Positions 2,534 through 25,683 of a stretch of DNA of 32,000 nucleotides are shown in pieces. The stretch is from Acaryochloris marina S15 (GTDB lineage: Bacteria > Cyanobacteriota > Cyanobacteriia > Thermosynechococcales > Thermosynechococcaceae). The notes under the pieces are model-generated. The model did no database searches. It was given only the letters and a program-made list of their open reading frames with translations, and was not told the origin of the DNA. How positions within the stretch are numbered: the first letter of the stretch is position 1; each line of letters starts with the position of its first letter. The stretch covers positions 5,849,946 through 5,881,945 of the forward strand of contig NZ_CP064923.1 in assembly GCF_018336915.1 (NCBI RefSeq). The letters run 5' to 3'. Made by a program: the position numbers and the translations under genes.

Positions 2534-3811
2534 CTATAACTGCGTTCGCAGGATGGTGCCTGAGAGGGGATGGGCTGTGGGGGTATAGGACTTAAGGCCA
2601 TACTCAGCGCCGTAATCGGTGCCTAAGCCGAAATACCACTGTTCTTGGTATTGGGTGAGGGATCGCGCAAACGTATCGGATTCAAACCGGAGAATTTCAC
2701 ACCAGTGCCGTGGGTTCGTCGCTTGTCTAACGCGATTAATAAACCGGAGTTTGCCAGCGATCCACTGGCGCTCACTGGTCAGGATAAACAGACCTTTGGG
2801 GGTAGTCAACACATCCCAAGGAACTTCCTGGGGCTTGAGCTGGATGCGCTGCACCTGGGTGTTGTTGGGGGCTAAGGAGTTGGCGACAAATAATCCAGGG
2901 GGTTGGATATGGGGATCTTCACTGTTGAGAACTTTGGCTCCTTGAGCGGTGTGAGAGATATAGCGTGATCCTTGACTCACATAGGCCAGCTGGGATTGGA
3001 AAACCGCCGTTTTTTTCATCTGGGTGGCTTGAGGGTGATTGGGGAATAGGGTGGTTCGATCTAAATCTTGCCGCTGAATCGGTTGGAGGGTTTTCCCAAG
3101 CTGCCAAGGACGCCCGCCTGCAAAGATATAGAGGGAGTCTTCAAACCGTGTCAGATGGGCAGGACTCGTGTTTAGGGTTTGGATATCCTGCCAGGTTTGT
3201 CCTTTATCCCCAGAGGCCATTAAATAGCCCTGGTTATCGGGTCTGCGAATCACCGACCATAATTGACCTGCGAATCCTTCAATGGACCAGACATGCACTC
3301 CTCCTGGCAAAGTGCGAATTTTTTGCCAATCCTGCTGTAGACGGTAGATATTGCCCAAATCCCAGCTTTCTCGGGCATCAATCCCAGGTGTATACAAAGC
3401 CGAGTCAATGGTGTGAAAGCTGCGAATCTCTTCTTCTGGGGCGACGAAGTTGAACTGAAACTGTTTGGAGCTGGAGTCGAAAAACCATAAGGGAATCGGT
3501 CCTTGATTGGCATTGCTATCACCATGGCCAAGATAGATCTGGTTCTCAAACGGCACCATCACCCACACATTGCGGGCATAGGGTTGAGCCTTGGCATACT
3601 GGCCTGTGGTAAAAGGCGAGCCCAAATTTTCTAGGCGCTGGGTGACATCAGTGGCCGGGATCTGAGCACAGACTTGGGCGGCCGAAGAAGACCCTAAAGG
3701 CCACTGCAAAAATTGGGAGGCGATCACGCCTGTACCGGCTATGACGCTGACGAGGATAAGTGCTAAGCGCCCATAGTGAGGTTGTTTAGGGAAGGAGGAT
3801 CGGGTGTTCAC
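2534..3811 (-). CDS. Hypothetical membrane-anchored or secreted protein, possibly beta-propeller-like
   Basis: Uninterrupted 425-codon ORF with a GTG start. N-terminal hydrophobic anchor (RLALILVSVIAGTGVIA). One BNR/Asp-box-like motif (SGDKGQTW). I recognise no family. Confidence 0.55.
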   Translation of the reverse strand: MNTRSSFPKQPHYGRLALILVSVIAGTGVIASQFLQWPLGSSSAAQVCAQIPATDVTQRLENLGSPFTTGQYAKAQPYARNVWVMVPFENQIYLGHGDSNANQGPIPLWFFDSSSKQFQFNFVAPEEEIRSFHTIDSALYTPGIDARESWDLGNIYRLQQDWQKIRTLPGGVHVWSIEGFAGQLWSVIRRPDNQGYLMASGDKGQTWQDIQTLNTSPAHLTRFEDSLYIFAGGRPWQLGKTLQPIQRQDLDRTTLFPNHPQATQMKKTAVFQSQLAYVSQGSRYISHTAQGAKVLNSEDPHIQPPGLFVANSLAPNNTQVQRIQLKPQEVPWDVLTTPKGLFILTSERQWIAGKLRFINRVRQATNPRHWCEILRFESDTFARSLTQYQEQWYFGLGTDYGAEYGLKSYTPTAHPLSGTILRTQL

Positions 3812-3946
3812 AAGCGGGAAGTAAGACGTTTTCGAGCAAGAAAGTTGGGGCAGGTCTTAGTCCCCAGAATATAGCGGATGCATGAGCTGGCTCAACCGGA
3901 CAATGGCCCGTGACCTTCACGGGCGATCAGAGTATCGCAATGTTTC

Positions 3947-3985
3947 TTTACAAACCCATTTACTTGTGTTACATTTATTTACATA
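3947..3985 (+). promoter_or_regulatory. HLR1-type (RpaB-binding) direct-repeat array overlapping the hli-1 core promoter
   Basis: Four half-sites: TTTACAAA(3947-3954)-4-TTTACTTG(3959-3966)-1-GTTACATT(3968-3975)-2-TTTACATA(3978-3985). The last two form a canonical HLR1, (G/T)TTACA(T/A)(T/A)N2(G/T)TTACA(T/A)(T/A). TTTACA-N17-TACATT reads as -35/-10. The ATG lies 23 nt downstream. Confidence 0.7.
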
Positions 3986-4007
3986 GTCAATTACGGAACT
4001 AACACAC

Positions 4008-4220
4008 ATGACATCTAGCGGATATACCTCTGACGATCGCGGTCGCATCAACCGTTTTGCAGTAGAGCCTAAAACTACAGCTAAAGCAGAGCCAGTATTT
4101 GGTTTCAATAAAGATGCTGAAAGATATAGTGGCCGTCTAGCCATGATCGGCTTCTTCGGAATTTTGTTGATTGAACTCGCCACTAATCTCACCTTTGTAC
4201 AGATTGTGACCGGCGCATAG
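4008..4220 (+). CDS. hli: High-light-inducible protein (HLIP/Scp, one-helix CAB-like), 70 aa
   Basis: Chlorophyll-binding helix motif ExxxGRLAMxGF (FGFNKDAERYSGRLAMIGFFGILLIELATN). The size and N-terminal extension resemble the HliA/B class. HLR1 lies upstream. GGAA at -13 as a weak SD. Confidence 0.9.
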   Translation: MTSSGYTSDDRGRINRFAVEPKTTAKAEPVFGFNKDAERYSGRLAMIGFFGILLIELATNLTFVQIVTGA

Positions 4221-4240
4221 TTGCCAACAACAGTATTAAT

Positions 4241-4269
4241 AAAAAGCTGAGGCAGTACCTCAGCTTTTT
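4241..4269. terminator. Bidirectional rho-independent terminator between the convergent hli-1 and response regulator genes
   Basis: AAAAAGCTGAGG-cagta-CCTCAGCTTTTT. The stem is perfect, with an A-tract on one side and a T-tract on the other. It lies between the stops at 4220 (+) and 4299 (-). Confidence 0.75.
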
Positions 4270-4298
4270 GCTTTTAAAACGTCGGTCTATATCTTGCC

Positions 4299-5012
4299 TT
4301 ATTCACCCCGTTGGATGGCATAGCCTACGCCCCGTACTGAAAGAATCAAGTCGGGTTCTTCAGTATCCTCTTTGAGCTTGTTTCGTAGGCGAGACATATG
4401 AACATCGACGACACGGGTATCAATTTTGCCGTCGGGACTATAGCCCCAAACCTTTTGTAAAAATTCAACTCTAGAGATGGGTTCTCCAGGGCGGCTAACC
4501 AGCAGCTCTAGTAAATTAAATTCGAGATGAGTGAGCTGAATTCGTTCTTGATCCTTGTAGACTTGCCGTTTATTGGTATCAATCTCGAGATGGCCCACTT
4601 GAATGACACCGGCTGATGTTTGGTGGGAAGCGTGGGATTTGGTGATTCGCCGCAGAATACAGCGAATGCGCGACTCTAGCTCTTTGGGTGAAAAAGGCTT
4701 GACCATATAGTCATCCGCCCCCATTTCCAGGCCCGTAATCCGATCGGCCACGTCTGAGAGGGCAGTCAACATAATAATGGGGACATCTGATTCTTGCCGA
4801 AGAGATTGACAGACCTGATACCCATTTAGTTTGGGCATCATCACGTCCAAAATAATCAAATCGGGTTCTTGATGCTGAAAAACTTGCAGGGCCTCCTCGC
4901 CATCAGCGGCAGTGATGACGACAAACCCCATCATGGAGAGACGGGTTTCTAGGATCCGACGAATGCTAGCTTCATCATCAGCGACTAGGATTGTTTGCTG
5001 CTGATCTTTCAA
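4299..5012 (-). CDS. OmpR-family response regulator, RpaB/Ycf27-type (receiver plus winged-helix DNA-binding domain)
   Basis: ILVADDEASIRRILETRLSMMGFVVITAADGEEAL...DLIILDVMMPKLNGY...PIIMLTAL.DVADRITGLEMGADDYMVKPFSPKELE is nearly colinear with remembered RpaB sequences (Synechocystis and S. elongatus). The C-terminus, LLELLVSRPGEPISR...VWGY...DTRVVDVHMSRLRNKL, is OmpR/PhoB-type. The start is TTG (5012..5010), because an in-frame TAA lies two codons upstream and there is no ATG before the receiver domain. Confidence 0.9.
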   Translation of the reverse strand: MKDQQQTILVADDEASIRRILETRLSMMGFVVITAADGEEALQVFQHQEPDLIILDVMMPKLNGYQVCQSLRQESDVPIIMLTALSDVADRITGLEMGADDYMVKPFSPKELESRIRCILRRITKSHASHQTSAGVIQVGHLEIDTNKRQVYKDQERIQLTHLEFNLLELLVSRPGEPISRVEFLQKVWGYSPDGKIDTRVVDVHMSRLRNKLKEDTEEPDLILSVRGVGYAIQRGE

Positions 5013-5370
5013 ACTGCTTTAGTATTCCAGAGACAGACAACGTTTAAGAGATGAGTACTCTTTGAACCTTAAATAACAAGCCCAAAAAAAAGTATGAATA
5101 TGAAGTTTTTTTACATATTCTCAGAGGCTTCTAGAACTTGAGTTTAGCAGTTGGTAGTCGGTTCATTCGCATTGTTGTGCCAAAGTTTGAGCTTTCGGGG
5201 CAAGAGACCCCACTTGAGGCAGACGATGATCCCCTTTCCTTTGGCATGGGATGGGTGCTGTCCACTCAATGATTACAGTGGGTTGGACAAATATCGGTCT
5301 GGATATCGACACGGTTAAGTCCTACAAAACCTTAGGTACTCCATGGTTTGAACAACAAATTATTAATTGC

Positions 5371-5409
5371 TTGACATGTTGTTACATTTGCGTTACATTT
5401 ATTTACATA
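5371..5409 (+). promoter_or_regulatory. Tandem HLR1 units overlapping the hli-2 core promoter
   Basis: TTGACATG(5371-5378)-2-GTTACATT(5381-5388)-3-GTTACATT(5392-5399)-2-TTTACATA(5402-5409). TTGACA(5371-5376)-N17-TACATT(5394-5399) reads as -35/-10, so both promoter hexamers sit inside HLR1 half-sites. Confidence 0.75.
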
Positions 5410-5447
5410 AAGCAACAACACACATGAATTAATCGGAGTCTAATCCC

Positions 5448-5591
5448 ATGAACACCTCTAACAACTTTTTTGGATTCAACCCCTTTGCTGAGGCTTGGAG
5501 CGGTCGTCTGGCTATGGTGGGTTTCTATGCTGCCATCGTCATTGAATTAGTGACTGGCAAAGGGGTATTGCATTTCTGGGGCTTGATGTAA
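5448..5591 (+). CDS. hli: High-light-inducible protein (HLIP), 47 aa; absent from the ORF track (below its size cut-off)
   Basis: Hand translation: [47 protein letters not shown]. It carries the full FGFN...AExxxGRLAMxGF HLIP signature. GGAG lies 10 nt upstream of the ATG (cggagtctaatcccATG), the same leader as hli-3. An HLR1 promoter lies 38 nt upstream. Confidence 0.88.
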
Positions 5592-5651
5592 GCGCTCCTA
5601 ATGGTTGATGGGATGGGCTAATCATCCCAAGCTCACCCTGAAAGAGATGAA

Positions 5652-5756
5652 ATGGCTAAAAATATTCAACCCTCATTCCCAGGCTTCAATTCATTGATAG
5701 AGATCTAGAATAGCCATCTAGCAATGCTCGTGAAGACTGAAGCTTGGGACATCTGA
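5652..5756 (+). pseudogene. Decayed hli copy (HLIP relic with an in-frame TAG and a truncated helix)
   Basis: The frame reads MAKNIQPSFPGFNSLIEI*NSHLAMLVKTEAWDI*. It aligns position-for-position with hli-2 ([19 protein letters not shown] against PGFNSLIEI*NSHLAMLVK) and keeps GFN, the Glu, the Asn and LAM. The TAG (5706-5708) sits where hli-2 has TGG (Trp). The rest of the transmembrane helix is lost. Confidence 0.4.
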
Positions 5757-5892
5757 CGGGTTCAGCATCGAAAAGCTTAATACTCCTCTGGGGGTGGCCA
5801 GTTAAACGAACTGCAAAAAAGTCTTTAGTCCTCGCCAGATACGGGCTTGCCGTTTACCCAGTCAAAAATCCTACTAAATCATTATCAAATTG

Positions 5893-5922
5893 ACCTCAGC
5901 TGCATGGCTGAGGTTTTCTTTT
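5893..5922 (+). terminator. Rho-independent terminator ending the hli-2 transcription unit
   Basis: ACCTCAGC-tgcatg-GCTGAGGT followed by TTTTCTTTT. The hairpin directly after hli-2 (TGGGATG-N7-CATCCCA, 5609-5629) has no T-tract, so read-through to this site is plausible. Confidence 0.6.
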
Positions 5923-5926
5923 GGCG

Positions 5927-5949
5927 GTTATGTAACAAATAGTTAGCTG
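5927..5949 (+). promoter_or_regulatory. Degenerate HLR1-like element (GGTTATGTAACAAATAGTTAGCTG) just after a terminator
   Basis: GTAACAAA-ta-GTTAGCTG keeps the 8-2-8 layout but has several mismatches. Its first 14 nt, GGTTATGTAACA(A/G)A, are shared with the element at 7384-7407, which also follows a terminator. Confidence 0.25.
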
Positions 5950-6019
5950 AATATGAGAAGTCGAAACCCTTATAAAACAGGCTTTTGAGACATATATAAG
6001 GTGCTATCCTTTCATATTC

Positions 6020-6059
6020 TTGACAAAACGTTACACAGCAAGTTACATTTATTTACATA
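6020..6059 (+). promoter_or_regulatory. Tandem HLR1 units overlapping the hli-3 core promoter
   Basis: TTGACAAA(6020-6027)-2-GTTACACA(6030-6037)-4-GTTACATT(6042-6049)-2-TTTACATA(6052-6059). TTGACA-N18-TACATT reads as -35/-10. The TTG 'start' of track ORF 6020..6244 is the first base of this -35 hexamer. Confidence 0.75.
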
Positions 6060-6091
6060 AGATTCATTCCTCGTTTACGGAGTCCAACGCT

Positions 6092-6244
6092 ATGAGTACA
6101 CAAAATCCAATCTGGGGTTTCACCGATTTTGCAGAAACCTTTGGTGGTCGCTTGGCAATGATGGGATTCTTTCTCGCCCTTGTGACTGAAGTTTTGACTG
6201 GTCAAGGCATTGTCGGTCAGATTGCTACATTACTAAACTTCTAA
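6092..6244 (+). CDS. hli: High-light-inducible protein (HLIP), 50 aa
   Basis: MSTQNPIWGFTDFAETFGGRLAMMGFFLALVTEVLTGQGIVGQIATLLNF. ATG at 6092, preceded by GGAG (cggagtccaacgctATG). The HLIP helix motif is present. The upstream 24 codons of the track ORF overlap the promoter and are not coding. Confidence 0.9.
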   Translation: MSTQNPIWGFTDFAETFGGRLAMMGFFLALVTEVLTGQGIVGQIATLLNF

Positions 6245-6293
6245 ACTGGCGTTTCGGGTTTAGAACGACTCTATTTCATCTTTAATATTTTTT

Positions 6294-6320
6294 CCCCGGC
6301 CTAGGCCGGGGAGCTTTATT
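6294..6320 (+). terminator. GC-rich hairpin (hli-3 terminator or attenuator) in the hli-3/sigma junction
   Basis: Perfect 18-nt palindrome CCCCGGCCTAGGCCGGGG (6294-6311). It is preceded by ATATTTTTT and followed by AGCTTTATT, a short and imperfect U-tract. Confidence 0.55.
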
Positions 6321-6355
6321 CCTCAGTTATCTGTGTTTACCCAAACATCGCCATT

Positions 6356-7312
6356 ATGAAAAATTCATTTGTTAGTAAAGATTCAATCACTACCTATCTG
6401 CGTGAGATTAGCCGCTTTCCTCTGTTGAATCACGAACAAGAAGTCATCTTTGGCAAGCAGGTACAGCGGTTAACAACTTTGCAGGAGTTGAAGCAAGAAT
6501 TACAGGACCACCTCGATCGAGAGCCGACCCAGAAAGAATGGGCCAAGAAGGCTCAGGTGTCTGTCGCACAACTGCAGAAGGAACTGAAAGTCGGAAACAA
6601 AGCCAATCGCAAAATGGTGGAATCCAATTTGCGTCTGGTCGTCTCCATTGCCAAGAAGTACAACAAAGCCAAAGTTGAATTTTTAGATTTGATTCAAGAA
6701 GGCACGATTGGCCTGCAGCGGGGTGTCGAGAAATTTGACCCTATGAAAGGCTATCGCTTCTCTACCTATGCGTACTGGTGGATTCGCCAAGCCATGACCC
6801 GTGCGATCGCAGAACAAGAACGAACGATTCGCCTCCCCATCCATATCAATGAAAAGCTTAGTAAGATGCGCAAAGTGAAGCGCCAACTGTCTCAGACCCT
6901 GCACCGCGACCCTACCGTGGCGGAGCTGGCAGCAGAGATGGAGCTTACCCCTAAAAAAATTGAAGATTATCTCAACTATGCTCGTCGCTCCATTTCTTTG
7001 GATATGCAGATTGGTGACCAGAAAAATACGGAACTGTGGGAGTTACTAGAAGACCCCAACGAATCCCCTGATACCTATGCCACGGCATCTTCTTTACGGT
7101 CCGATTTGGCAAAACTACTCCAGGATCTCAGCCCTCAGCAGCGAGAAGTGATTACGTTGCGATACGGCCTGATTGACCAGAACCCCTTGACCTTAGCGAA
7201 GGTGGGAGAGCGTCTAAACGTCAGCCGGGAATGGGTCCGCCGAGTGGAGCGAGAAGCCTTTAAGGTTTTGCGATCGCAAAAAGTGATGCTGCAAGAATAT
7301 ATGGCTTGCTAA
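6356..7312 (+). CDS. RNA polymerase sigma factor, group 2 (RpoD/SigA family, SigB/SigD-like, 318 aa)
   Basis: Regions 1.2-4.2 are recognisable: [66 protein letters not shown], and a C-terminal 4.2 helix-turn-helix ([24 protein letters not shown]). It has no long region 1.1, consistent with group 2. Confidence 0.92.
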
Positions 7313-7342
7313 ACCCCTTGTTCCAGTCTCAATCTGTGCATC

Positions 7343-7377
7343 AGCTACTCTTCGGTCTAAAAGAGTAGCTTTTTTTT
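7343..7377 (+). terminator. Rho-independent terminator of the sigma factor gene
   Basis: AGCTACTCTT-cggtctaa-AAGAGTAGCT (perfect 10-bp stem) followed by T7 (7371-7377). Confidence 0.85.
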
Positions 7378-7407
7378 GTGACAGGTTATGTAACAGAAAT
7401 TTACATA
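7378..7407 (+). promoter_or_regulatory. Orphan HLR1-like promoter element with no ORF directly downstream
   Basis: GTGACAGG(7378-7385)-4-GTAACAGA(7390-7397)-2-TTTACATA(7400-7407). GTGACA-N18-TACATA could serve as -35/-10. The next 240 bp are AT-rich and hold no ORF longer than 29 codons before the pgr5 promoter. Confidence 0.35.
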
Positions 7408-7649
7408 CCGGCAGTCTATGGTGTTAGTCGGGAACCTTAGGTTTTTGGTTTTACCAGGGAGATTGAGTGTTAAACAGAGCCGACTATATTATGCTGATTC
7501 ATCCTTTTATTGATTTTTTCCGTATAAATATGTCTTTATCTCGAAATAGATTAGATTTACAGCTTTATAAGCCTATTTAATTTCTTTTTTGAGATCTATT
7601 AAGCCTGGATGAATTCAATACCACCAGTTTTAAATACTCGCAACTTTTG

Positions 7650-7698
7650 TTGACATTCTGTTACAAAACAATTAACATGGTTAACATAACGTTACACA
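7650..7698 (+). promoter_or_regulatory. HLR1-like repeat array overlapping the pgr5 core promoter
   Basis: TTGACATT(7650-7657)-2-GTTACAAA(7660-7667)-4-TTAACATG(7672-7679)-1-TTAACATA(7681-7688)-2-GTTACACA(7691-7698). TTGACA-N17-TAACAT reads as -35/-10. The repeats are more degenerate than the hli sites, but the spacing pattern is the same. Confidence 0.55.
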
Positions 7699-7710
7699 AA
7701 AGAATTCACC

Positions 7711-7908
7711 ATGTTTGCTCCCCTCGTCGTGCTAGCCCGCAACATTGTCGGTCAACCCAGATTTATCAAACTCCGGGGGAAAGCCATTGCCCTGCATTCA
7801 AAAGCGATTACCAATGTCTGTAATCAGATTGGTATTGATCGGAGTCGTCGTCAGGGTTGGATTCGACTAGCACGCGATAACGGCAAACGTCTTGGCTTGC
7901 TGGCCTAA
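7711..7908 (+). CDS. pgr5: PGR5-like protein (proton gradient regulation 5; cyclic electron flow around PSI), 65 aa
   Basis: MFAPLVVLARNIVGQPRFIKLRGKAIALHSKAITNVCNQIGIDRSRRQGWIRLARDNGKRLGLLA is colinear with the remembered mature Arabidopsis PGR5 (GLFAPLVVVTRNLVGKKRFNQLRGKAIALHSQVITEFCKSIGADAKQRQGLIRLAKKNGERLGFLA) and with Synechocystis Ssr2016. Confidence 0.88.
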   Translation: MFAPLVVLARNIVGQPRFIKLRGKAIALHSKAITNVCNQIGIDRSRRQGWIRLARDNGKRLGLLA

Positions 7909-8117
7909 AGGATGAGTCAGCGTGATGCCCATCTCCCTCCTAGAGCAGAGGCGCAATCACCAAACTGGCTTCATTCTTACAAAGAGCCGCATCCCTTTCT
8001 GTAACTCAGCGCTACAACCGTTCAAACTTCTACTTTTGGGTGGCTCATCTTCCGGGTAATTCAAGATTTTTCACTTGCTTGAACCATCCTGATCATTCTT
8101 TAACTAAGGACATTCTC

Positions 8118-10031
8118 ATGCCTGTAAACGATAAACCTCGACGCCCACGGCCAAGCCTTCTCAGCTCGATTTTGCTGGTGCTGCCTTTGGTGTTAATAGT
8201 GGTCAATTTAGTCTTGACCTTTGGTAATGGTCCGCGCGTCTCTAAAGTGCCCTACAGCTTTTTCATCGAGCAAGTTCAGGATGAGCAGGTGGCTCGGGTC
8301 TCCGTTGGCCAAGACATCATTCGTTATCAGATGAAAGATATGGATGGAAACTCCGGGCAAGTTCAAGAAACCACCCCTATCTTCGACCTAGAACTCCCCA
8401 AACTTCTCGAATCCAAAGGCGTTGAATTCGCCGCTACCCCTCCTGCTGGAAATCGCTGGTTCACCACCTTACTGAGCTGGGTGATTCCTCCCGTGATCTT
8501 CGTTGCCATTTTTCAATTCTTTAGCCGTGGTGGCATGGGTGGCGGTGGTCCCCAAGGTGCCCTCTCCGTGACCAAGAACAAAGCCAAAGTCTACGTCGAA
8601 GGCGATGACAATAAAGTCACCTTTGATGATGTTGCTGGTGTCGAAGAATCCAAAGCCGAACTCGAAGAAATTGTTGAGTTCCTCCAGTCTCCCAAGCGCT
8701 TCACTGATATCGGAGCCAAAATTCCCAAAGGTGTCTTACTCGTAGGCCCTCCTGGAACCGGTAAAACTTTGATGGCCAAAGCTGTCGCCGGTGAAGCAGG
8801 GGTTGCCTTCTTCAGTATCTCGGGTTCAGAATTTGTAGAACTATTTGTCGGTACCGGTGCAGCCCGAGTCCGGGACTTGTTTGAACAAGCGAAGAAGAAA
8901 GCCCCCTGCATTATCTTTATTGACGAATTGGATGCCATTGGTAAATCTCGGTCTGGTGGAAATGGCTTCGTTGGTGGTAATGATGAGCGGGAACAAACTC
9001 TCAACCAACTCTTAACAGAAATGGATGGTTTTGGGGCAGGCGATGCCACGGTTATCGTCTTAGCTGCAACGAACCGTCCTGAAACTTTAGACCCTGCCCT
9101 ATTACGTCCCGGTCGATTTGACCGTCAAGTACTGGTAGACCGTCCTGATCTCACAGGTCGTCTAGCTATCTTGGAAATCTATGCCAAGAAGGTGAAGCTC
9201 GGTGAGAATGTTGACCTCAAGGCTATGGCCACTCGTACTCCTGGGTTTGCAGGCGCTGACTTAGCCAACTTGGTTAATGAAGCGGCACTACTCGCTGCCC
9301 GACGAGGGAACAAGGTAGTGGAGACCCAAGACTTTGCGGAAGCAATTGAGCGAGTAGTAGCGGGTCTAGAGAAGAAGAGCCGCGTGCTCAACGAGAAAGA
9401 GAAGAAGATTGTGGCTTACCACGAAGTCGGCCATGCCTTAGTCGGAGCCAAGATGTCAGGTTCGGATCAAGTGGAGAAGATTTCCATTGTTCCTCGCGGT
9501 ATGGCTGCACTAGGTTACACGTTGCAAGTGCCTACGGAAGATCGGTTCTTGTTGAATGAGGCTGAACTTCGAGGTCAGATTGCGACTCTACTGGGTGGAC
9601 GAGCAGCTGAGGAAGTCATCTTCGGTAGTATCACGACGGGTGCTTCTAATGATTTACAAAGAGCGACGGATCTAGCGGAGCAGATGGTGACGTCCTACGG
9701 CATGAGCGAGGTGTTAGGACCCCTTGCTTATGACAAGGGTCAGCAGAATAATTTCCTCGGTGGGGGAATGAATGCTCGTCGTGCAGTCAGTGATGAGACG
9801 GCTAAGGAGATAGATAAGGAGGTTAAGGGTATTGTGGAGACGGCTCATCAAGAAGCGCTCACTATCCTCAAGGGAAATAAGGAGCTGTTGGAGATGATTT
9901 CTGAGCAGTTGCTGGAGAAGGAAGTGATTGAGGGAGATGGTCTCAGAGAAATGCTGGCTAAGGTGCATCCTGAAACCCATGTGCAGTCTGAGCAGCATGT
10001 TCAAGAGACTGAAGAGCCTCTAGCTGTCTAA
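8118..10031 (+). CDS. ftsH: ATP-dependent zinc metalloprotease FtsH
   Basis: N-terminal transmembrane segments, Walker A (GPPGTGKT), Walker B (IIFIDELDA), second region of homology ([20 protein letters not shown]) and the zinc motif HEVGHAL. I prefer the ATG at 8118 (MPVNDKPRR), which is preceded by AAGGA, over the track's GTG at 8040. Confidence 0.95.
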
Positions 10032-10102: not shown

Positions 10103-10825
10103 TCAAGTTCTAGCTAAAATGGCATCGACTGCAGCTGCATTGAAGGGGAGCTGAAGAATTTGACCATTGAGAGCAAAGAAAGGTGTCCCGGTGATACCAA
10201 GTTGTTGGGCAAGGGCTAAGTCAGCATCGATTGCTTTTGTGGCGGCAACACTGTTGCGATCGCGATCAAACTGCGCCAGATCCAACTGCAGTTGCTGTGC
10301 AATATCGGTGTAGAGCTTGTCCCCTAATTCCTCTTGGCGGGCAAAGAGGGCATCATGATAAGACCAAAACTGCCCCTGTTGCTGAGCCGCCCAAGCGGCC
10401 TGAGCGGCGGGCAGGGCCTGATCGTGAATCGCCTGAAGAGGGAGATGTTTGTAAGTGAAAGTAAACTGGTCAGGATTTTGCTTTAAATAGGCTTGGACAT
10501 CGTTTGCCGCTTGGGCACAAAACGGACATTGAAAATCGGAGAATTCTACCAATAGGTTGGGGTTATTCTGAGCGCCAGTAGTGGGTGAGTTGCCGACTAG
10601 AACATTAGCGTTAAGCTGCTGGATGGCAGCTTGCTGGGCTTGTTGCTGGGCCTGTTTTTGATTCTGTTGGTAAGTTTGCACCGATTCAATAATGACTTCG
10701 GGGTGATTACGAAGGATCTGGAGAACCTGCTCTTCTAGGTTGTCTACGGCTAAGCCTGGAGTGCTCCAACCAAGCCATAGGCAAAGACTCAGCAGTCCCA
10801 TTGCTATGAATCGAAGTGATTGCAT
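10103..10825 (-). CDS. DsbA-family thiol:disulfide oxidoreductase (periplasmic or lumenal, thioredoxin fold)
   Basis: Signal peptide (MQSLRFIAMGLLSLCLWLGWSTPGLA), CxxC active site (FQCPFCAQ), and a C-terminal GTPFF motif typical of DsbA-like proteins. A Gln-rich linker follows the signal peptide. ATG with a GAAGGGGG SD. Confidence 0.85.
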   Translation of the reverse strand: MQSLRFIAMGLLSLCLWLGWSTPGLAVDNLEEQVLQILRNHPEVIIESVQTYQQNQKQAQQQAQQAAIQQLNANVLVGNSPTTGAQNNPNLLVEFSDFQCPFCAQAANDVQAYLKQNPDQFTFTYKHLPLQAIHDQALPAAQAAWAAQQQGQFWSYHDALFARQEELGDKLYTDIAQQLQLDLAQFDRDRNSVAATKAIDADLALAQQLGITGTPFFALNGQILQLPFNAAAVDAILART

Positions 10826-21686: not shown

Positions 21687-21965
21687 TATTGTTATCTTCG
21701 TGGTTCAGAAAAATCTGATGAAGTTGCAAGCATGAGATATCAGTTACCATTGTGAATTCGATGCGAATACTGATCACTTTTTAAGAGATTTGACATGAGC
21801 GACGAGACGAGGAACGCAGACTGGGACAAAGGACTTAGCAGCAAGTTGTTCTTAGATGGTTTATGGTTGCGTTTCGTTATGTTTGTTGAATCAACGCTGC
21901 GATCGCAATCGCAAACCCAACGTCGGGAGTAGGCTGGAATTAGCCTTTCACAGCAGGATGTTCTC

Positions 21966-23264
21966 GTGGGTACGGACAATCAACTCTTTAGCGATGCCAC
22001 TCACCGTTTAACCACTGCCTTAGAGCATGTGGACTTGCCCGAAGATGTTTTAGAAACTTTGAAATATCCCAAGGCTCAACTCGGGGTTTCTATTCCGGTG
22101 CGCATGGATAATGGCGAACTGAAAATCTTTCAAGGCTATCGCGTCCGCTATGACGATACTCGCGGTCCAGCTAAGGGTGGAGTTAGGTATCATCCAGGTG
22201 TTTCCATTGATGAAGTCCAGTCCCTAGCTTTTTGGATGACCTTTAAATGTGCTGCCCTAAACTTACCCTTTGGAGGTGGTAAGGGGGGCATTACGGTAGA
22301 TCCCAAAGCTCTCTCGCGGATGGAACTAGAGCGTTTAAGCCGGGGCTATATTGATGCCATTGCCGATTTTATTGGGCCTGATGTTGATATTCTGGCGCCT
22401 GATGTCTATACCAACCCGATGATTATGGGCTGGATGATGGATCAGTACAGCATTATCAAACGCCAAATTTGCCGAGGGGTGGTGACGGGGAAACCCCTGG
22501 CGATTGGTGGCAGCGTCGGCAGAAATACGGCCACGGGAATGGGAGCCTTTTTCGTGATTGAGGCGATGGGGCCCAAGCTGGAATTGATTCCTGAGCAAAC
22601 CACAGTCGCAGTCCAAGGGTTTGGAAATGCTGGCGCTGTTGTGGCTGAACTGCTAAATCAAGTGGGTTATAAAGTCGTTGCTGTTAGCGATTCACAAGGG
22701 GGGATTTATGCGCCTCAAGGTTTGGATATTGCCAGTATCCGCAAGCATAAAGAAGCCAGCCGCTCCATGAAGGCGGTCTATTGTGATGGCAGTGTCTGCA
22801 GCATTATTGAGCATGACACGATCACCAATGAAGAGCTGCTGGCGCTGGATGTAGATGTGCTGATTCCCGCAGCGTTGGAGAATCAAATTACTGCTGATAA
22901 TGCTGAGCAGATCAAAGCAAAGTATATTTTTGAGGTTGCCAATGGTCCGGTGACTTCAGCGGCGGACGCAATTTTGGTGGAGGCGGGCACGACAGTCTTC
23001 CCGGATATTTTGGTGAATGCGGGGGGAGTCACGGTCAGCTATTTTGAATGGGTACAAAATCGGAGTGGTCTCTACTGGACGGAACCAGAAGTGCAGAAGC
23101 AGCTTCAGCAAAAGATGGTGGAGGAGACGGAGACGATTTGGCAAATTGCTCAAACTAAGGAGATTTCAGTAAGGACTGCGGCCTATGTGCATGCTTTAAA
23201 TCGGATTGGGGAAGCAGTTACAGCTAAGGGAACACGGGACTATTACGCGAAGTATCAGCCATGA
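21966..23264 (+). CDS. gdhA: Glutamate dehydrogenase (Glu/Leu/Phe/Val dehydrogenase family)
   Basis: Catalytic-region signature GPAKGGVRYHP...LAFWMTFKCAALNLPFGGGKGGI and the dinucleotide fold VAVQGFGNAGA. GTG start (MGTDNQLFSDA), placed as in other small GDHs. Confidence 0.93.
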   Translation: MGTDNQLFSDATHRLTTALEHVDLPEDVLETLKYPKAQLGVSIPVRMDNGELKIFQGYRVRYDDTRGPAKGGVRYHPGVSIDEVQSLAFWMTFKCAALNLPFGGGKGGITVDPKALSRMELERLSRGYIDAIADFIGPDVDILAPDVYTNPMIMGWMMDQYSIIKRQICRGVVTGKPLAIGGSVGRNTATGMGAFFVIEAMGPKLELIPEQTTVAVQGFGNAGAVVAELLNQVGYKVVAVSDSQGGIYAPQGLDIASIRKHKEASRSMKAVYCDGSVCSIIEHDTITNEELLALDVDVLIPAALENQITADNAEQIKAKYIFEVANGPVTSAADAILVEAGTTVFPDILVNAGGVTVSYFEWVQNRSGLYWTEPEVQKQLQQKMVEETETIWQIAQTKEISVRTAAYVHALNRIGEAVTAKGTRDYYAKYQP

Positions 23265-23419
23265 TCGTTTTTGCCCCCAAAGGCAGTCTCTTATGATCCA
23301 GCTTCCAACCGCGTTTTCTAGTTGAGCGAGTGCCAGTAATATTTCCCAACAACTTTGTTGCCAACAATTTTGTTAGCAGTGCTCCCTCTTGGTTAGGCTT
23401 TACGTTATGAGCGCAACAG

Positions 23420-24274
23420 CTATTGCTCGGCATTAGCATTCTCTTCCATACCGTAAATACTGCAGTGGGGAAATGTCAGCGCAAAGCCATACCAGCGGAG
23501 AAAGTATTGTAAGGGGCGAGTGCTGTCAGCCCAAGTTGCACTGGGGGCACCATCTAGCGGGTTGAGGGATACCTGTAGCGTTTGCCCATTCCATTCATCG
23601 GTGACCTGCTGTTCAATCCCGACGTGGGGATAGAAACGAGCTATCCCATCTACTACAACCCCCAAACCCATCGTCATTCTGGGTAATCGTGGATCTTCGG
23701 CAGCCATAGTTTGGGTAAACAGCTTCGGTAAATAGCCTGTTTGCCCGAAGGTCCACTGGCCGAAGCGCATCACTCGTCGAAAAATGGGACGCTGATGCGA
23801 TCGCAAAATCCGTAACTCGGGTTCTTGCCGACGGGCCGCCGCCACAGTGGTCATTTCCAGGCTCCAAGCTTCAAGCTGAGTCCCTGCCAATGGTCCATAG
23901 ACCGCTTGCCCTGTGATGTGGTCCCAGTAGGTGCCCGTCTCATCATCCGTGAGAATGGCAACCCCGTTGTACAGTCCCCCCACCTGGAAATGATAGCGTT
24001 GCCCCTCCACTACAGGCGTTAGCCCAACACCGCTATGACAAACCCCACAAAATGAAACGATGTAAGGCTGATCCGCCAACGTTCCTTGAGCCAGATGGTG
24101 ATACGCCATTTCTTGCAATAACAGAGCGCGTCGTTGACCTTGCCGTTCAAATACAATTAGCTCAGCAGTGTCCGGTAGTCGGGTGGATGCAATGGATATC
24201 CCTGCATCAATGACCTCAAAACGCTGAAATAGGTCGGGCTGCTTTTGCAAGCGACTAGGATCGAAGTGAGACAT
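23420..24274 (-). CDS. DUF3179 domain-containing protein
   Basis: The pattern SFCGVCHSGVG...QVGGLYNGVAILTDDETGTYWDHITGQAVYGPLAGTQL matches my memory of the DUF3179 core (YCPLCG..G...GL.YN.N..MYD.ET.S.W.Q..G.A..G...G..L). ATG with an AAGGAG SD. Confidence 0.75.
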   Translation of the reverse strand: MSHFDPSRLQKQPDLFQRFEVIDAGISIASTRLPDTAELIVFERQGQRRALLLQEMAYHHLAQGTLADQPYIVSFCGVCHSGVGLTPVVEGQRYHFQVGGLYNGVAILTDDETGTYWDHITGQAVYGPLAGTQLEAWSLEMTTVAAARRQEPELRILRSHQRPIFRRVMRFGQWTFGQTGYLPKLFTQTMAAEDPRLPRMTMGLGVVVDGIARFYPHVGIEQQVTDEWNGQTLQVSLNPLDGAPSATWADSTRPLQYFLRWYGFALTFPHCSIYGMEENANAEQ

Positions 24275-24306
24275 GCTCTAACTCCTTAGCAAGAAGATGA
24301 TGACTT

Positions 24307-24326
24307 AATTAAACACTTGTTTAGTT
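24307..24326. promoter_or_regulatory. Candidate TetR operator palindrome in the divergent DUF3179/tetR intergenic region
   Basis: AATTAAACA-CT-TGTTTAGTT. The core TAAACA/TGTTTA is perfect, and the 9-bp arms have one mismatch. It lies 71 nt upstream of the tetR ATG and 33 nt upstream of the DUF3179 ATG. Confidence 0.4.
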
Positions 24327-24396
24327 AGGCTATCGCTGCTGAATGGAGCTGTCAAGTTTTACGCTAGTGCTCATGACTGTGACGAAGGATATGTGA

Positions 24397-25056
24397 ATGG
24401 CGCGTCTTGATCCAAAGTCGAACTCTACTCAAAAGGGGAAGCAGAAACGGGATGCTGCAGCCACAAAAGCTCGGATCTTAGAAGCAGCAACGGAAGAGTT
24501 TGCTAAGTATGGATTAGCGGGGGCGCGCACGGCTGCGATCGCAACCCAAAGCCAAGTCACAAAAGCCATGCTGTGCTACTACTTCACCAATAAGGAAACC
24601 CTCTATCGGTCAGTATTGCAGCGGCTAGTCAGTGACATTAATGCAGCCTTTCAACCCACAGATTGGGATATGCAAACCCCAGCACAAGCATTGGCGTCAA
24701 TGATCCGGGCCTACATTGCCTTTGAGTCTCAAAACCGATGGCACGGCATGTTGTGGTTTCAGGAAGCGATTCAGAATCAGGGCCGATATGGAGAGGAGAC
24801 TGGGTGGCAGGCAGGCTTTCAATCGATGGTGAGTGTCTTAGACAAAGGGATGGCAATAGGCCAGTTCCGACAGCTCGATCCGTTTTTGACGGCGATCAAT
24901 ATTTTGGGGGTCTGTTCGTTTTATTTTGACGCCCACGAGAACTTGAAATATCTGGACTCCCAACAACAGCTGTTAAGTCCCGAAATGGTGGAGCGGCAGA
25001 CGGAAGAAGTGGTGCGTTTGGTTCTAGCTGGAGTTTCCGCAGGCCCCGAGGTATAA
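24397..25056 (+). CDS. TetR/AcrR family transcriptional regulator
   Basis: N-terminal helix-turn-helix: ILEAATEEFAKYGLAGARTAAIATQSQVTKAMLCYYFTNKETLY. About 220 aa. GAAGGA SD. Confidence 0.9.
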   Translation: MARLDPKSNSTQKGKQKRDAAATKARILEAATEEFAKYGLAGARTAAIATQSQVTKAMLCYYFTNKETLYRSVLQRLVSDINAAFQPTDWDMQTPAQALASMIRAYIAFESQNRWHGMLWFQEAIQNQGRYGEETGWQAGFQSMVSVLDKGMAIGQFRQLDPFLTAINILGVCSFYFDAHENLKYLDSQQQLLSPEMVERQTEEVVRLVLAGVSAGPEV

Positions 25057-25092
25057 AGCCTTAGGGGCATGTAGGTGACGATGATGCAGGGA

Positions 25093-25683
25093 TTACGGGG
25101 ATAGTTTTGCAGTTACGGTGGCAAGCTTAGTTGCGATCGCACCTACGGCATCAACCTGTTTCTCATCGACTAAATTGCCCTGATCATCAAAGGCTTGATA
25201 AGCACGCGGAATCGCCTTTTGTTCAGGAATCACTAGCACTCCAATCCCTTCTAAAATGGCACGCACATGGACTAGCCCCCGCATACCTCCTAAGGCTCCC
25301 GGTGAGGTTGCCAGAAGCGCGGCGACTTTACCCTTAAAGCAATTGAGGCCCATGGGTGTTTCCTCCGGCTCAGGGCGGGTGGCCCAATCGATGGCATTTT
25401 TGAGCAGGGGCGTGATGGAACCGTTGTATTCAGGACAGGAGATTAGAAAACCCTGGTGACTTTTGAGGAGTGCCTTAAACTGCAGCACTGACTCTGGAAG
25501 ACCGTCTTTGGCTTCCAAATCCTCATTAAATAAGGGCATGGGATAATCCAGCAGATCGATCAGGGTGACCTCAGCGCCAGCACCCGTCGCCCCCGCAGCA
25601 GCAATCTTGACCAGTTTTTTATTGAAAGATTCAAGACGGGCACTACCGGCAAAAGCCAGAATTTTAATGGGGGATGACATCAT
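25093..25683 (-). CDS. NAD(P)H-dependent FMN reductase (flavodoxin-like fold)
   Basis: IKILAFAGSARLESFNKKL (FMN phosphate-binding loop) and the CPEYNGSITPLLKNAIDW motif typical of the FMN_red family. Confidence 0.85.
   Translation of the reverse strand: MMSSPIKILAFAGSARLESFNKKLVKIAAAGATGAGAEVTLIDLLDYPMPLFNEDLEAKDGLPESVLQFKALLKSHQGFLISCPEYNGSITPLLKNAIDWATRPEPEETPMGLNCFKGKVAALLATSPGALGGMRGLVHVRAILEGIGVLVIPEQKAIPRAYQAFDDQGNLVDEKQVDAVGAIATKLATVTAKLSP

Follow-up and report, generated by a model that had tools for sequence, protein, structure and literature searches.

Tandem HLR1 repeats coincide with predicted core promoters in a putative high-light gene cluster of Acaryochloris

Our analysis of a 32-kb stretch of DNA from an Acaryochloris marina-group strain (all of which is called "the window" here; its relatives are coded L001, L002, etc.) shows that three small genes for putative high-light-inducible proteins (HLIPs), hli-1, hli-2 and hli-3, are each preceded by an exact copy of one 18-mer, GTTACATTTATTTACATA, at 3968-3985, 5392-5409 and 6042-6059, respectively. 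The three copies are on the + strand, lie 22-38 nucleotides (nt) upstream of the genes, and match 16 of the 16 specified positions of the published HLR1 consensus, (G/T)TTACA(T/A)(T/A)-N2-(G/T)TTACA(T/A)(T/A), as quoted in PMC6525291 and PMC13421787. A sequence-only reading of the window had reported this triple repeat and named it HLR1; its three positions were all found to be correct, and the consensus match confirms the identity of the motif. Further half-sites of the same type lie upstream of the 18-mers, the neighbouring gene pgr5 has a related array, and the predicted -35 and -10 hexamers of these genes coincide with the repeats. We think it probable that a conserved cluster of high-light genes occupies the 3.9-7.9 kb stretch and that, by analogy with characterized systems, an RpaB-family response regulator would repress its HLR1-embedded promoters in low light by occluding them.

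The repeats do not recur at random. No further copy of GTTACATTTATTTACATA is present in the window at up to three mismatches, its mean chance expectation is 0.02 copies, and three copies were found in 0 of 100 dinucleotide-preserving shuffles. At up to two mismatches the HLR1 consensus has 10 matches in the window, eight of them within 3968-7698 (expected, 0.68). The upstream (distal) units of hli-2, hli-3 and pgr5 match it at 14, 14 and 15 of the 16 positions, and the proximal pgr5 unit at 14 of 16. HLR1-like matches at 10448 and 14468 (minus strand) were set aside as chance occurrences; neither precedes a gene start, and the one at 10448 is inside a coding region by coordinate conversion from L001. 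Another HLR1-like sequence, GTAACAGA-AA-TTTACATA at 7390-7407 (+; 14 of 16 positions), is just 3' of the sigD terminator with GTGACA ahead of it; it is probably not a functional HLR1, since four relatives have not kept it, nor is the rest of the 398-nt spacer between sigD and pgr5 conserved. A mobile or repetitive element was rejected as the source of the 18-mer, since the copies are present only at promoter positions and are retained in orthologues despite diverged flanks. A link to cyanophages was also rejected, in that the 18-mer is in six viral contigs, which is about the chance expectation, and in none of the six does it adjoin an hli-like gene.

The string TTGACA-N4-KTTACA occurs exactly three times in the window, at 5371, 6020 and 7650 (expected, 0.01), upstream of hli-2, hli-3 and pgr5, in accord with the sequence-only reading, according to which the distal unit opens with TTGACA in these three cases. 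Sigma-70-type promoters have TTGACA-like and TATAAT-like hexamers 16-18 nt apart, the second base of the -10 being A and the sixth T. The three best sigma-70-like matches in 3800-8000, each with 10 of 12 positions, are TTGACA-17-TACATT (5371-5399), TTGACA-18-TACATT (6020-6049) and TTGACA-17-TAACAT (7650-7678), again upstream of hli-2, hli-3 and pgr5, and hli-1 ranks after them with TTTACA-17-TACATT (9 of 12, with a TG extended -10). All four genes therefore have predicted sigma-70-type hexamers, which, apart from the variation described below, appear invariant in orthologues.

The arrays (all on the + strand) are built as follows. Upstream of hli-2 the distal HLR1-like unit TTGACATG-TT-GTTACATT (5371-5388), whose TTGACA is the predicted -35, is followed by the exact 18-mer, which contains the predicted -10 TACATT (5394-5399); the TTACA-type half-sites start at 5372 (TGACA), 5382, 5393 and 5403, with spacings of 10, 11 and 10 nt. 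The hli-3 distal unit, TTGACAAA-AC-GTTACACA (6020-6037), likewise opens with the predicted -35 TTGACA and its TTCTTGACAAAACGTTACA is invariant in six taxa, as is the proximal 18-mer with its predicted -10 TACATT (6044-6049); half-sites start at 6021 (TGACA), 6031, 6043 and 6053, with spacings of 10, 12 and 10 nt. In pgr5 the distal unit TTGACATT-CT-GTTACAAA (7650-7667), again with TTGACA as -35, is invariant in five taxa except for one spacer base, the -10 hexamer TAACAT (7673-7678) comes 17 nt after TTGACA, and the proximal unit TTAACATA-AC-GTTACACA (7681-7698), conserved in five taxa, would cover the predicted start site and the early leader; here half-sites start at 7651 (TGACA), 7661, 7673 (TAACA), 7682 (TAACA) and 7692, with spacings of 10, 12, 9 and 10 nt. 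The unit-to-unit distance is 21 base pairs (bp) in hli-2, 22 bp in hli-3 and 31 bp in pgr5. By sequence and conservation these three promoters thus have the twin-HLR1 arrangement, two same-strand units over the predicted -35, -10 and +1. At hli-1 there is one unit, the exact 18-mer (with at most one mismatch in six taxa), which includes the predicted -10 TACATT (3971-3976) with TG ahead of it, and one -35-like half-site, TTTACA (3947-3952), 17 nt upstream of TACATT. Half-sites there start at 3948, 3960 (TTACT), 3969 and 3979 (spacings 12, 9 and 10 nt), and the upstream repeats TTTACAAA (3947) and TTTACTTG (3959) have an 8-4-8 spacing that does not qualify as HLR1; only TTTACAAA, the sole distal half-site kept, is conserved in relatives. 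The proposal of an additional 8-2-8-like unit ahead of each 18-mer therefore holds for hli-2 and hli-3 (an equivalent unit is present in pgr5) and fails for hli-1, and the half-sites, which had been described as phased, are not strictly so in any of the three hli promoters.

Alignments of the upstream regions of Acaryochloris-group orthologues (seven taxa for hli-2, six for hli-3, six for hli-1 and five for pgr5) show that these sequences are selectively conserved at the half-site and hexamer positions. In hli-2, hli-3 and pgr5 conservation is low upstream and sets in abruptly at (T/C)TTGACA. Mean column identity in hli-2 is 0.54 far upstream, 0.96 in the first distal half-site, 0.90 in the second distal core, 0.51 in the gap between the units and 0.94 in the proximal 18-mer; the parallel values in hli-3 are 0.61, 1.0, 1.0, 0.61 and 1.0. 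The second distal half-site, which is inside the promoter spacer, is conserved in pgr5 as well. Promoter spacers are not conserved as a rule, and yet the TTACA in mid-spacer is kept in six of seven hli-2, six of six hli-3 and five of five pgr5 orthologues, while the neighbouring gap varies freely, which points to contact with a protein rather than drift. The first distal half-site is TTGACA in every hli-2, hli-3 and pgr5 orthologue, with G at position 3, and never the HLR1-consensus TTTACA, which argues for selection for the -35 consensus. The pgr5 hexamer that follows TTGACA at 17 nt is TAACAT, TAATAT, TAAGAT, TAACAT and TAAAAT in the five taxa (TAATAT in strain Moss Beach); its TA...T is constant and its middle variable, which is the behaviour of a -10 and unlike that of a TTACA half-site, so TTGACA is very likely the -35. 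All 19 orthologous hli promoters have TACATT unchanged, and in the last half-site, TACATA, the final two bases can be CA, TC or AC in orthologues, two hli-1 orthologues having TTCACATA (first base C). In the six hli-1 taxa TTTACA or TTTGCA is kept 21-22 nt ahead of the 18-mer, the T before the G of the TGn extended -10 is always present, the intervening sequence is unconserved, and no conserved second distal half-site was found.

The first 10.7 kb of the window is 97.1% identical in DNA sequence to the Acaryochloris marina Moss Beach chromosome (CP071717.1), and the promoter differences between the two are mostly at degenerate positions: the NN spacer of the hli-2 distal unit, an hli-2 leader base, the hli-3 inter-unit gap and position 4 of the pgr5 -10. 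The exception is one change inside the last pgr5 half-site.

These observations suggest the following mechanism. The hli promoters would be strong and of the sigma-70 type, with TTGACA (TTTACA in hli-1) as -35, a 17-18 nt spacer and TACATT as -10, the hexamers being part of HLR1 half-sites; the consensus proximal HLR1 would cover about -14 to +4, and the distal HLR1-like unit of hli-2 and hli-3 about -36 to -18. When light is low, a response regulator of the RpaB family would occupy the direct repeats, presumably as one head-to-tail dimer per 8-2-8 unit, with two dimers about two helical turns apart, and would block RNA polymerase; in high light it would leave the DNA and the near-consensus promoter would fire. 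That two dimers bind is what the OmpR/PhoB family and unit distances of 21-22 bp (two turns) and 31 bp (three turns) would lead one to expect, and complete occlusion of the promoter is likewise a prediction. The tandem pho boxes of PhoB and the F1-F2-F3 sites of OmpR in the enterobacteria are bound by winged-helix regulators as head-to-tail dimers on direct repeats of about 10-11 bp, the dimers being aligned on one face of the DNA. Unlike the repeats described here, which fall on good -35 and -10 hexamers and would be expected to act as repressor sites, the pho boxes replace a missing -35 and activate.

Our expectations as to the binding protein, its stoichiometry, the start sites and the light response are drawn from the literature and from analogy. 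RpaB binds HLR1, with low-light repression from sites located between about -38 and +23 (PMC13421787), and it leaves the DNA within minutes of a shift to high light (PMC13421787, PMC6525291), so the low-light repression at core-promoter HLR1s that the sequence-only reading took as established is indeed documented (PMC6525291, PMC13421787). With the starts predicted from the best sigma-70 register the units would span about -36 to +4, and a shifted register (below) would also keep them in the repressive zone. In Synechocystis pgr5, RpaB recovery at five minutes after the shift was about 5%, down from 32%, and mutations in the boxes had differing effects (PMC6525291). The HLIP gene AM1_4584 and the PGR5 gene AM1_4588 belong to the 35 genes that high light induces most in A. 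marina MBIC11017, where HLR1 motifs were also reported near HLIP start sites (PMC11633204); judging by their adjacent locus numbers, AM1_4584 and AM1_4588 are probably orthologues of genes in the window cluster.

The closest parallel is the pgr5 gene (ssr2016) of Synechocystis sp. PCC 6803, in which the tandem units HLR1a and HLR1b extend over -35, -10 and the base at which transcription starts (Riediger et al. 2019, PMC6525291), and which is repressed in low light and rapidly induced in high light. The window pgr5 promoter has the same layout, and those of hli-2 and hli-3 are a more compact version of it. The predicted hli arrangement differs from Synechocystis pgr5 in the genes that carry the design, in that the units are 3-4 nt apart (21-22 bp) as against 13 nt (31 bp) in Acaryochloris pgr5, and in that the predicted -10 is within the proximal unit and not between the units. 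The hli/scp genes of Synechocystis 6803 and hliA and rpoD3 of Synechococcus elongatus PCC 7942 (Kappell and van Waasbergen 2007; Seki 2007; PMC6331805) share with the window cluster the consensus, the kinds of presumed target (HLIPs and a SigD-type sigma factor) and the predicted repressive core-promoter position; they are described as having single HLR1s that end 3-13 bp upstream of the start or lie just downstream of it, whereas here there are two units and the predicted start is inside the proximal one. The same motif was searched for in the same genus when HLR1s were reported near the HLIP genes, nblA and cpcB of MBIC11017, where high-light induction of HLIP and PGR5 genes was shown (mBio 2024, PMC11633204); as far as its text shows, that study gives motif presence only (FIMO/MCAST) and does not mention twin units, hexamers embedded in them or cross-species conservation.

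Several points weigh against the occluded-promoter interpretation or some part of it: hli-1 lacks a full distal unit, the unit spacing is unequal among the promoters, in L003 the second distal half-site of the hli-2 orthologue is degenerate (TTTATGTA), the binder could be any of several RpaB-named paralogues of Acaryochloris, and the Synechocystis scp/hli HLR1s end 3-13 bp upstream of their start sites (PMC6331805). The last of these bears on the promoter register, since half-sites that recur about every 10 bp allow two readings. We favour the one from TTGACA in the first half-site to TACATT in the third, 17 or 18 nt apart, which predicts starts at about 3981-3983, 5405-5407 and 6055-6057 for hli-1, hli-2 and hli-3, and at about 7684-7686 for pgr5. 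In the other, the -35 would be in the second distal half-site (GTTACA/TTACAT) and the -10 would be TACATA in the last half-site, giving starts near 3992, 5416 and 6066 and leaving TTGACA as an upstream operator half-site only. Such a downstream shift of about 10 nt would fit the Synechocystis sites, but we think it improbable, because TACATA lacks the critical final T of a -10 and varies in orthologues where TACATT does not (19 of 19), hli-1 offers no conserved second distal half-site that might act as -35, the first half-site of hli-2, hli-3 and pgr5 is TTGACA and never TTTACA, and pgr5 has TTGACA-17-TAAnAT. The sigma70-type promoter of the sequence-only reading accordingly stands as to its hexamers, which are inside or against half-sites, with conservation beginning at TTGACA and a TAAnAT in pgr5; its exact starts are to be taken as predictions. 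It could also be that the regulator's site is the proximal 18-mer alone, with one dimer bound, and that the distal unit is just a consensus -35 followed by a half-site-like spacer. The single HLR1 plus -35 of hli-1, the one or two consensus mismatches in the distal units and the degraded half-site in one hli-2 orthologue would all agree with this. We nevertheless regard it as improbable too, given the retention of the spacer TTACA beside a freely varying gap, the change in Synechocystis pgr5 expression on mutation of the distal box (PMC6525291), and the recurrence of the four-half-site layout upstream of psb34 and psb35-related genes in distant cyanobacteria, even though the search pattern that found these required the layout.

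A different origin for the identical 18-mers was proposed by the sequence-only reading, which took the shared GGAG leaders to show that promoter, leader and gene were duplicated as a cassette. The leader motifs themselves, CGGAGTCTAA (5434-5443) in hli-2 and CGGAGTCCAA (6078-6087) in hli-3, are confirmed, and each ends 4 nt ahead of the start codon (that of hli-3 is at 6092, and not nearer to the array). Other motifs beyond HLR1 are shared among the 5' regions, ACACACATG by hli-1 and hli-2, (A)TTACGGAG by hli-1 and hli-3, and CGGAGTC by hli-2 and hli-3, as might be expected of relics of a recent duplication or gene conversion. The three coding cores, on the other hand, have only 53-61% nucleotide identity and 28-44% at third codon positions, which is near saturation, so the paralogues must be ancient and the identity of the 18-mers is best explained by purifying selection on an optimal site. 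Each paralogue moreover has its own orthologues across Acaryochloris species (an hli-2 orthologue is present even in a more distant Acaryochloridaceae metagenome-assembled genome (MAG), where the regulator is 72% identical), and divergence of the flanks in orthologues has left the 18-mer no less exact. The leaders thus fail to support cassette duplication, and a recent event of this kind, largely refuted by the divergence of the cores, is very improbable; an ancient common origin of promoter and leader is plausible. In the hli-2 leader (5410-5447, +) the conserved ACACACATG (5418-5426) is followed by CGGAGTCTAA and overlaps a mini open reading frame (ORF), ATG AAT TAA (5424-5432). ACACACATG also forms the start-codon context of hli-1 (4002-4010), and as a leader motif of hli-2 it is conserved in six of seven taxa; there it opens a two-codon mini-ORF in the window, an in-frame N-terminal extension in L003 and L089, and an overlapping out-of-frame ORF in L085.

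Which protein reads the sites is a separate matter. The cluster contains an RpaB-family response regulator gene of its own (4299-5012, - strand), which sits between its presumed target promoters and has a TTG start codon that is conserved in five taxa. Its product passes the NCBIfam RpaB equivalog NF045944 (392 bits against a cut-off of 330; OmpR-type receiver and winged helix), its orthology being uncertain, and it retains the recognition helix DTRVVDVH(M/I)SRLR. We consider it possible, although on balance doubtful, that the sites are read mainly by this divergent protein, or are shared among paralogues, and not by canonical RpaB, in a dedicated local circuit like that of SrrA in Synechococcus elongatus. 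In keeping with this, the protein is on a long branch and shares only 68-71% identity with canonical RpaBs, as against 88% among the canonical RpaBs themselves from Thermosynechococcus to Gloeobacter; its recognition helix is intact; its place between hli-1 and hli-2 is conserved in eight Acaryochloris loci; and the genus has several RpaB-named paralogues, MBIC11017 having seven rpaB homologues, of which the one that binds HLR1 was left open (PMC11633204). More PGAP-named "RpaB" proteins, 64-68% identical to the cluster regulator, are encoded by Acaryochloris plasmids, including three of Moss Beach, and none of the Moss Beach plasmid paralogues adjoins hli genes, so the regulator-hli module is not the duplicated unit. 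A dedicated circuit is harder to reconcile with the passing of the RpaB equivalog cut-off and with the finding of no full HLR1 upstream of the regulator gene. In addition, no Acaryochloris-named protein is among the best 120 matches to Thermosynechococcus RpaB, and if the genome has no canonical RpaB this gene would simply be the RpaB orthologue.

The order of genes at 3.9-7.9 kb is hli-1, the regulator gene on the opposite strand, hli-2, hli-3, sigD and pgr5, followed by ftsH, and the order hli-1/regulator/(hli-2)/hli-3/sigD/pgr5/ftsH is wholly or partly retained at eight other Acaryochloris loci, including that of CCMEE 5410 and several MAGs. All but the regulator gene are on the + strand. 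The gene sigD (6356-7312), 3' of hli-3, encodes a SigD-like group-2 sigma factor (TIGR02997, 417 bits against a cut-off of 384.5) which is the only protein identical between the window and Moss Beach. Neither a half-site array in 6245-6355 nor any clear promoter or HLR1 was seen upstream of sigD, and it may be transcribed by read-through from the hli-3 promoter. The hli-3/sigD spacer has a hairpin at 6292-6313 with compensatory stem changes among relatives (CCCCGGC/GCCGGGG as against CCCCAGC/GCTGGGG); its T-tail is poor, and it is followed by 30 conserved nt up to the sigD start. The product of pgr5 (7711-7908) is the cyclic electron transport protein PGR5 (NCBIfam cyano_PGR5 equivalog, 124 bits against a cut-off of 50). 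The next gene, ftsH (8118-10031), which also follows pgr5 in two relatives (L003 and L086), has no HLR1 at up to two mismatches in the region upstream of it (7909-8117), and so differs from Synechocystis ftsH2, which has a single HLR1 over its -10 and start site. Synteny with Moss Beach is lost past about 10.7 kb (window position ~10684), where Moss Beach has a Transposase_mut gene at the matching point, and window segments in 21867-25326 match L001 in rearranged order. No Rfam family reached its gathering score anywhere in the window.

HLIPs are proteins of about 45-70 amino acids with one transmembrane helix and the chlorophyll-binding motif ExxNGRxAMxGF, and the three hli products have in common the one-helix motif GRLAMxGF. 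They are a 70-amino-acid one-helix protein that is HliA/B-like and has a Psb34-like N-terminal motif (hli-1, 4008-4220; the Psb34 N-terminal match is weak), a 47-amino-acid HliC-like one-helix protein (hli-2, 5448-5591) and a 50-amino-acid one-helix protein (hli-3, 6092-6244). Their PF00504 (Chloroa_b-bind) scores of 21.4, 17.4 and 19.9 bits, respectively, are just below the gathering score of 22.3; sub-gathering Pfam scores are common for proteins this short. Their motif takes the forms AExxSGRLAM(I/V)GF and AETFGGRLAMMGF, in which S or G replaces the canonical N (cores AERYSGR, AEAWSGR and AETFGGR in hli-1, hli-2 and hli-3), and the replacement is kept in orthologues, while a fourth hli paralogue of the relatives retains the N; the change might be relevant in an organism that uses chlorophyll d. 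This fourth paralogue, intact at 50 amino acids in L002, L003, L085, L089 and L088, has the N-terminus MNTQPSFTGFNAFAETWNGRLAM and the canonical ExxNGR motif, and follows hli-2 in an apparent operon without an HLR1 of its own. In the window it is reduced to a remnant at 5652-5708 (+), with the translation MAKNIQPSFPGFNSLIEI and a stop.

A metagenome scan with the pattern TTGACA-N4-KTTACA-N5..8-KTTACAWW-N2-KTTACA gave 17 matches, with a gap of 5 nt in 10 and 6 nt in seven, and none with the allowed gaps of 7 or 8 nt. Gaps of 5 or 6 nt keep TTGACA 17-18 nt from TACATT. As the pattern demanded TTGACA, the scan carries no information on the invariance of that hexamer. Two of the 17 look like chance or tandem repeats, and the others are upstream of Psb35-related genes (seven; NF047380), psb34 genes (four; NF033486) and Acaryochloris-type hli-2/hli-3 genes (four), on contigs of 44-60% G+C. 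The psb34 and psb35-related contigs with the design are L098, L099, L100, L102-L104, L107-L109, L111 and L112, and the psb35-related leaders are roughly 90-120 nt long. The scan shows that the predicted four-half-site design is widespread and tied to genes for small photosystem II-assembly and photoprotection proteins. One might go further and see in TTGACA-N4-KTTACA-N5/6-HLR1 a separate class of high-light promoter, tightly repressed and conserved across cyanobacteria, that would serve the earliest photoprotection genes (pgr5, psb34, psb35-related genes, and hli genes of the hliC and other types) and that in Acaryochloris would be read by the divergent cluster-encoded RpaB paralogue as a local circuit; this is speculative, and we think that proposal as a whole rather unlikely.

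HLR1s at hli promoters (2000-2007), the twin HLR1 over a core promoter (2019) and HLR1s near A. marina HLIP genes (2024) were already known. What is modestly new is that hli genes have a compact, conserved form of the twin design, that this form recurs at psb34 and psb35-related genes, and that a divergent RpaB-family gene lies among its likely targets. The repeats are real, their interpretation as occluded promoters appears well supported by the comparative evidence, and no new mechanism is implied. The published twin-HLR1 design is thus extended from pgr5 to hli, and the metagenome matches add psb34 and psb35-related genes to it. For Acaryochloris, in which the HLR1-binding protein was left open (PMC11633204), the conserved cluster gives an obvious candidate regulator and defined sites at which to test it. 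With a repressor operator and a near-consensus promoter in the same bases, HLIP genes could be all but off in low light and still rank with the quickest and strongest of the genes that respond to high light.

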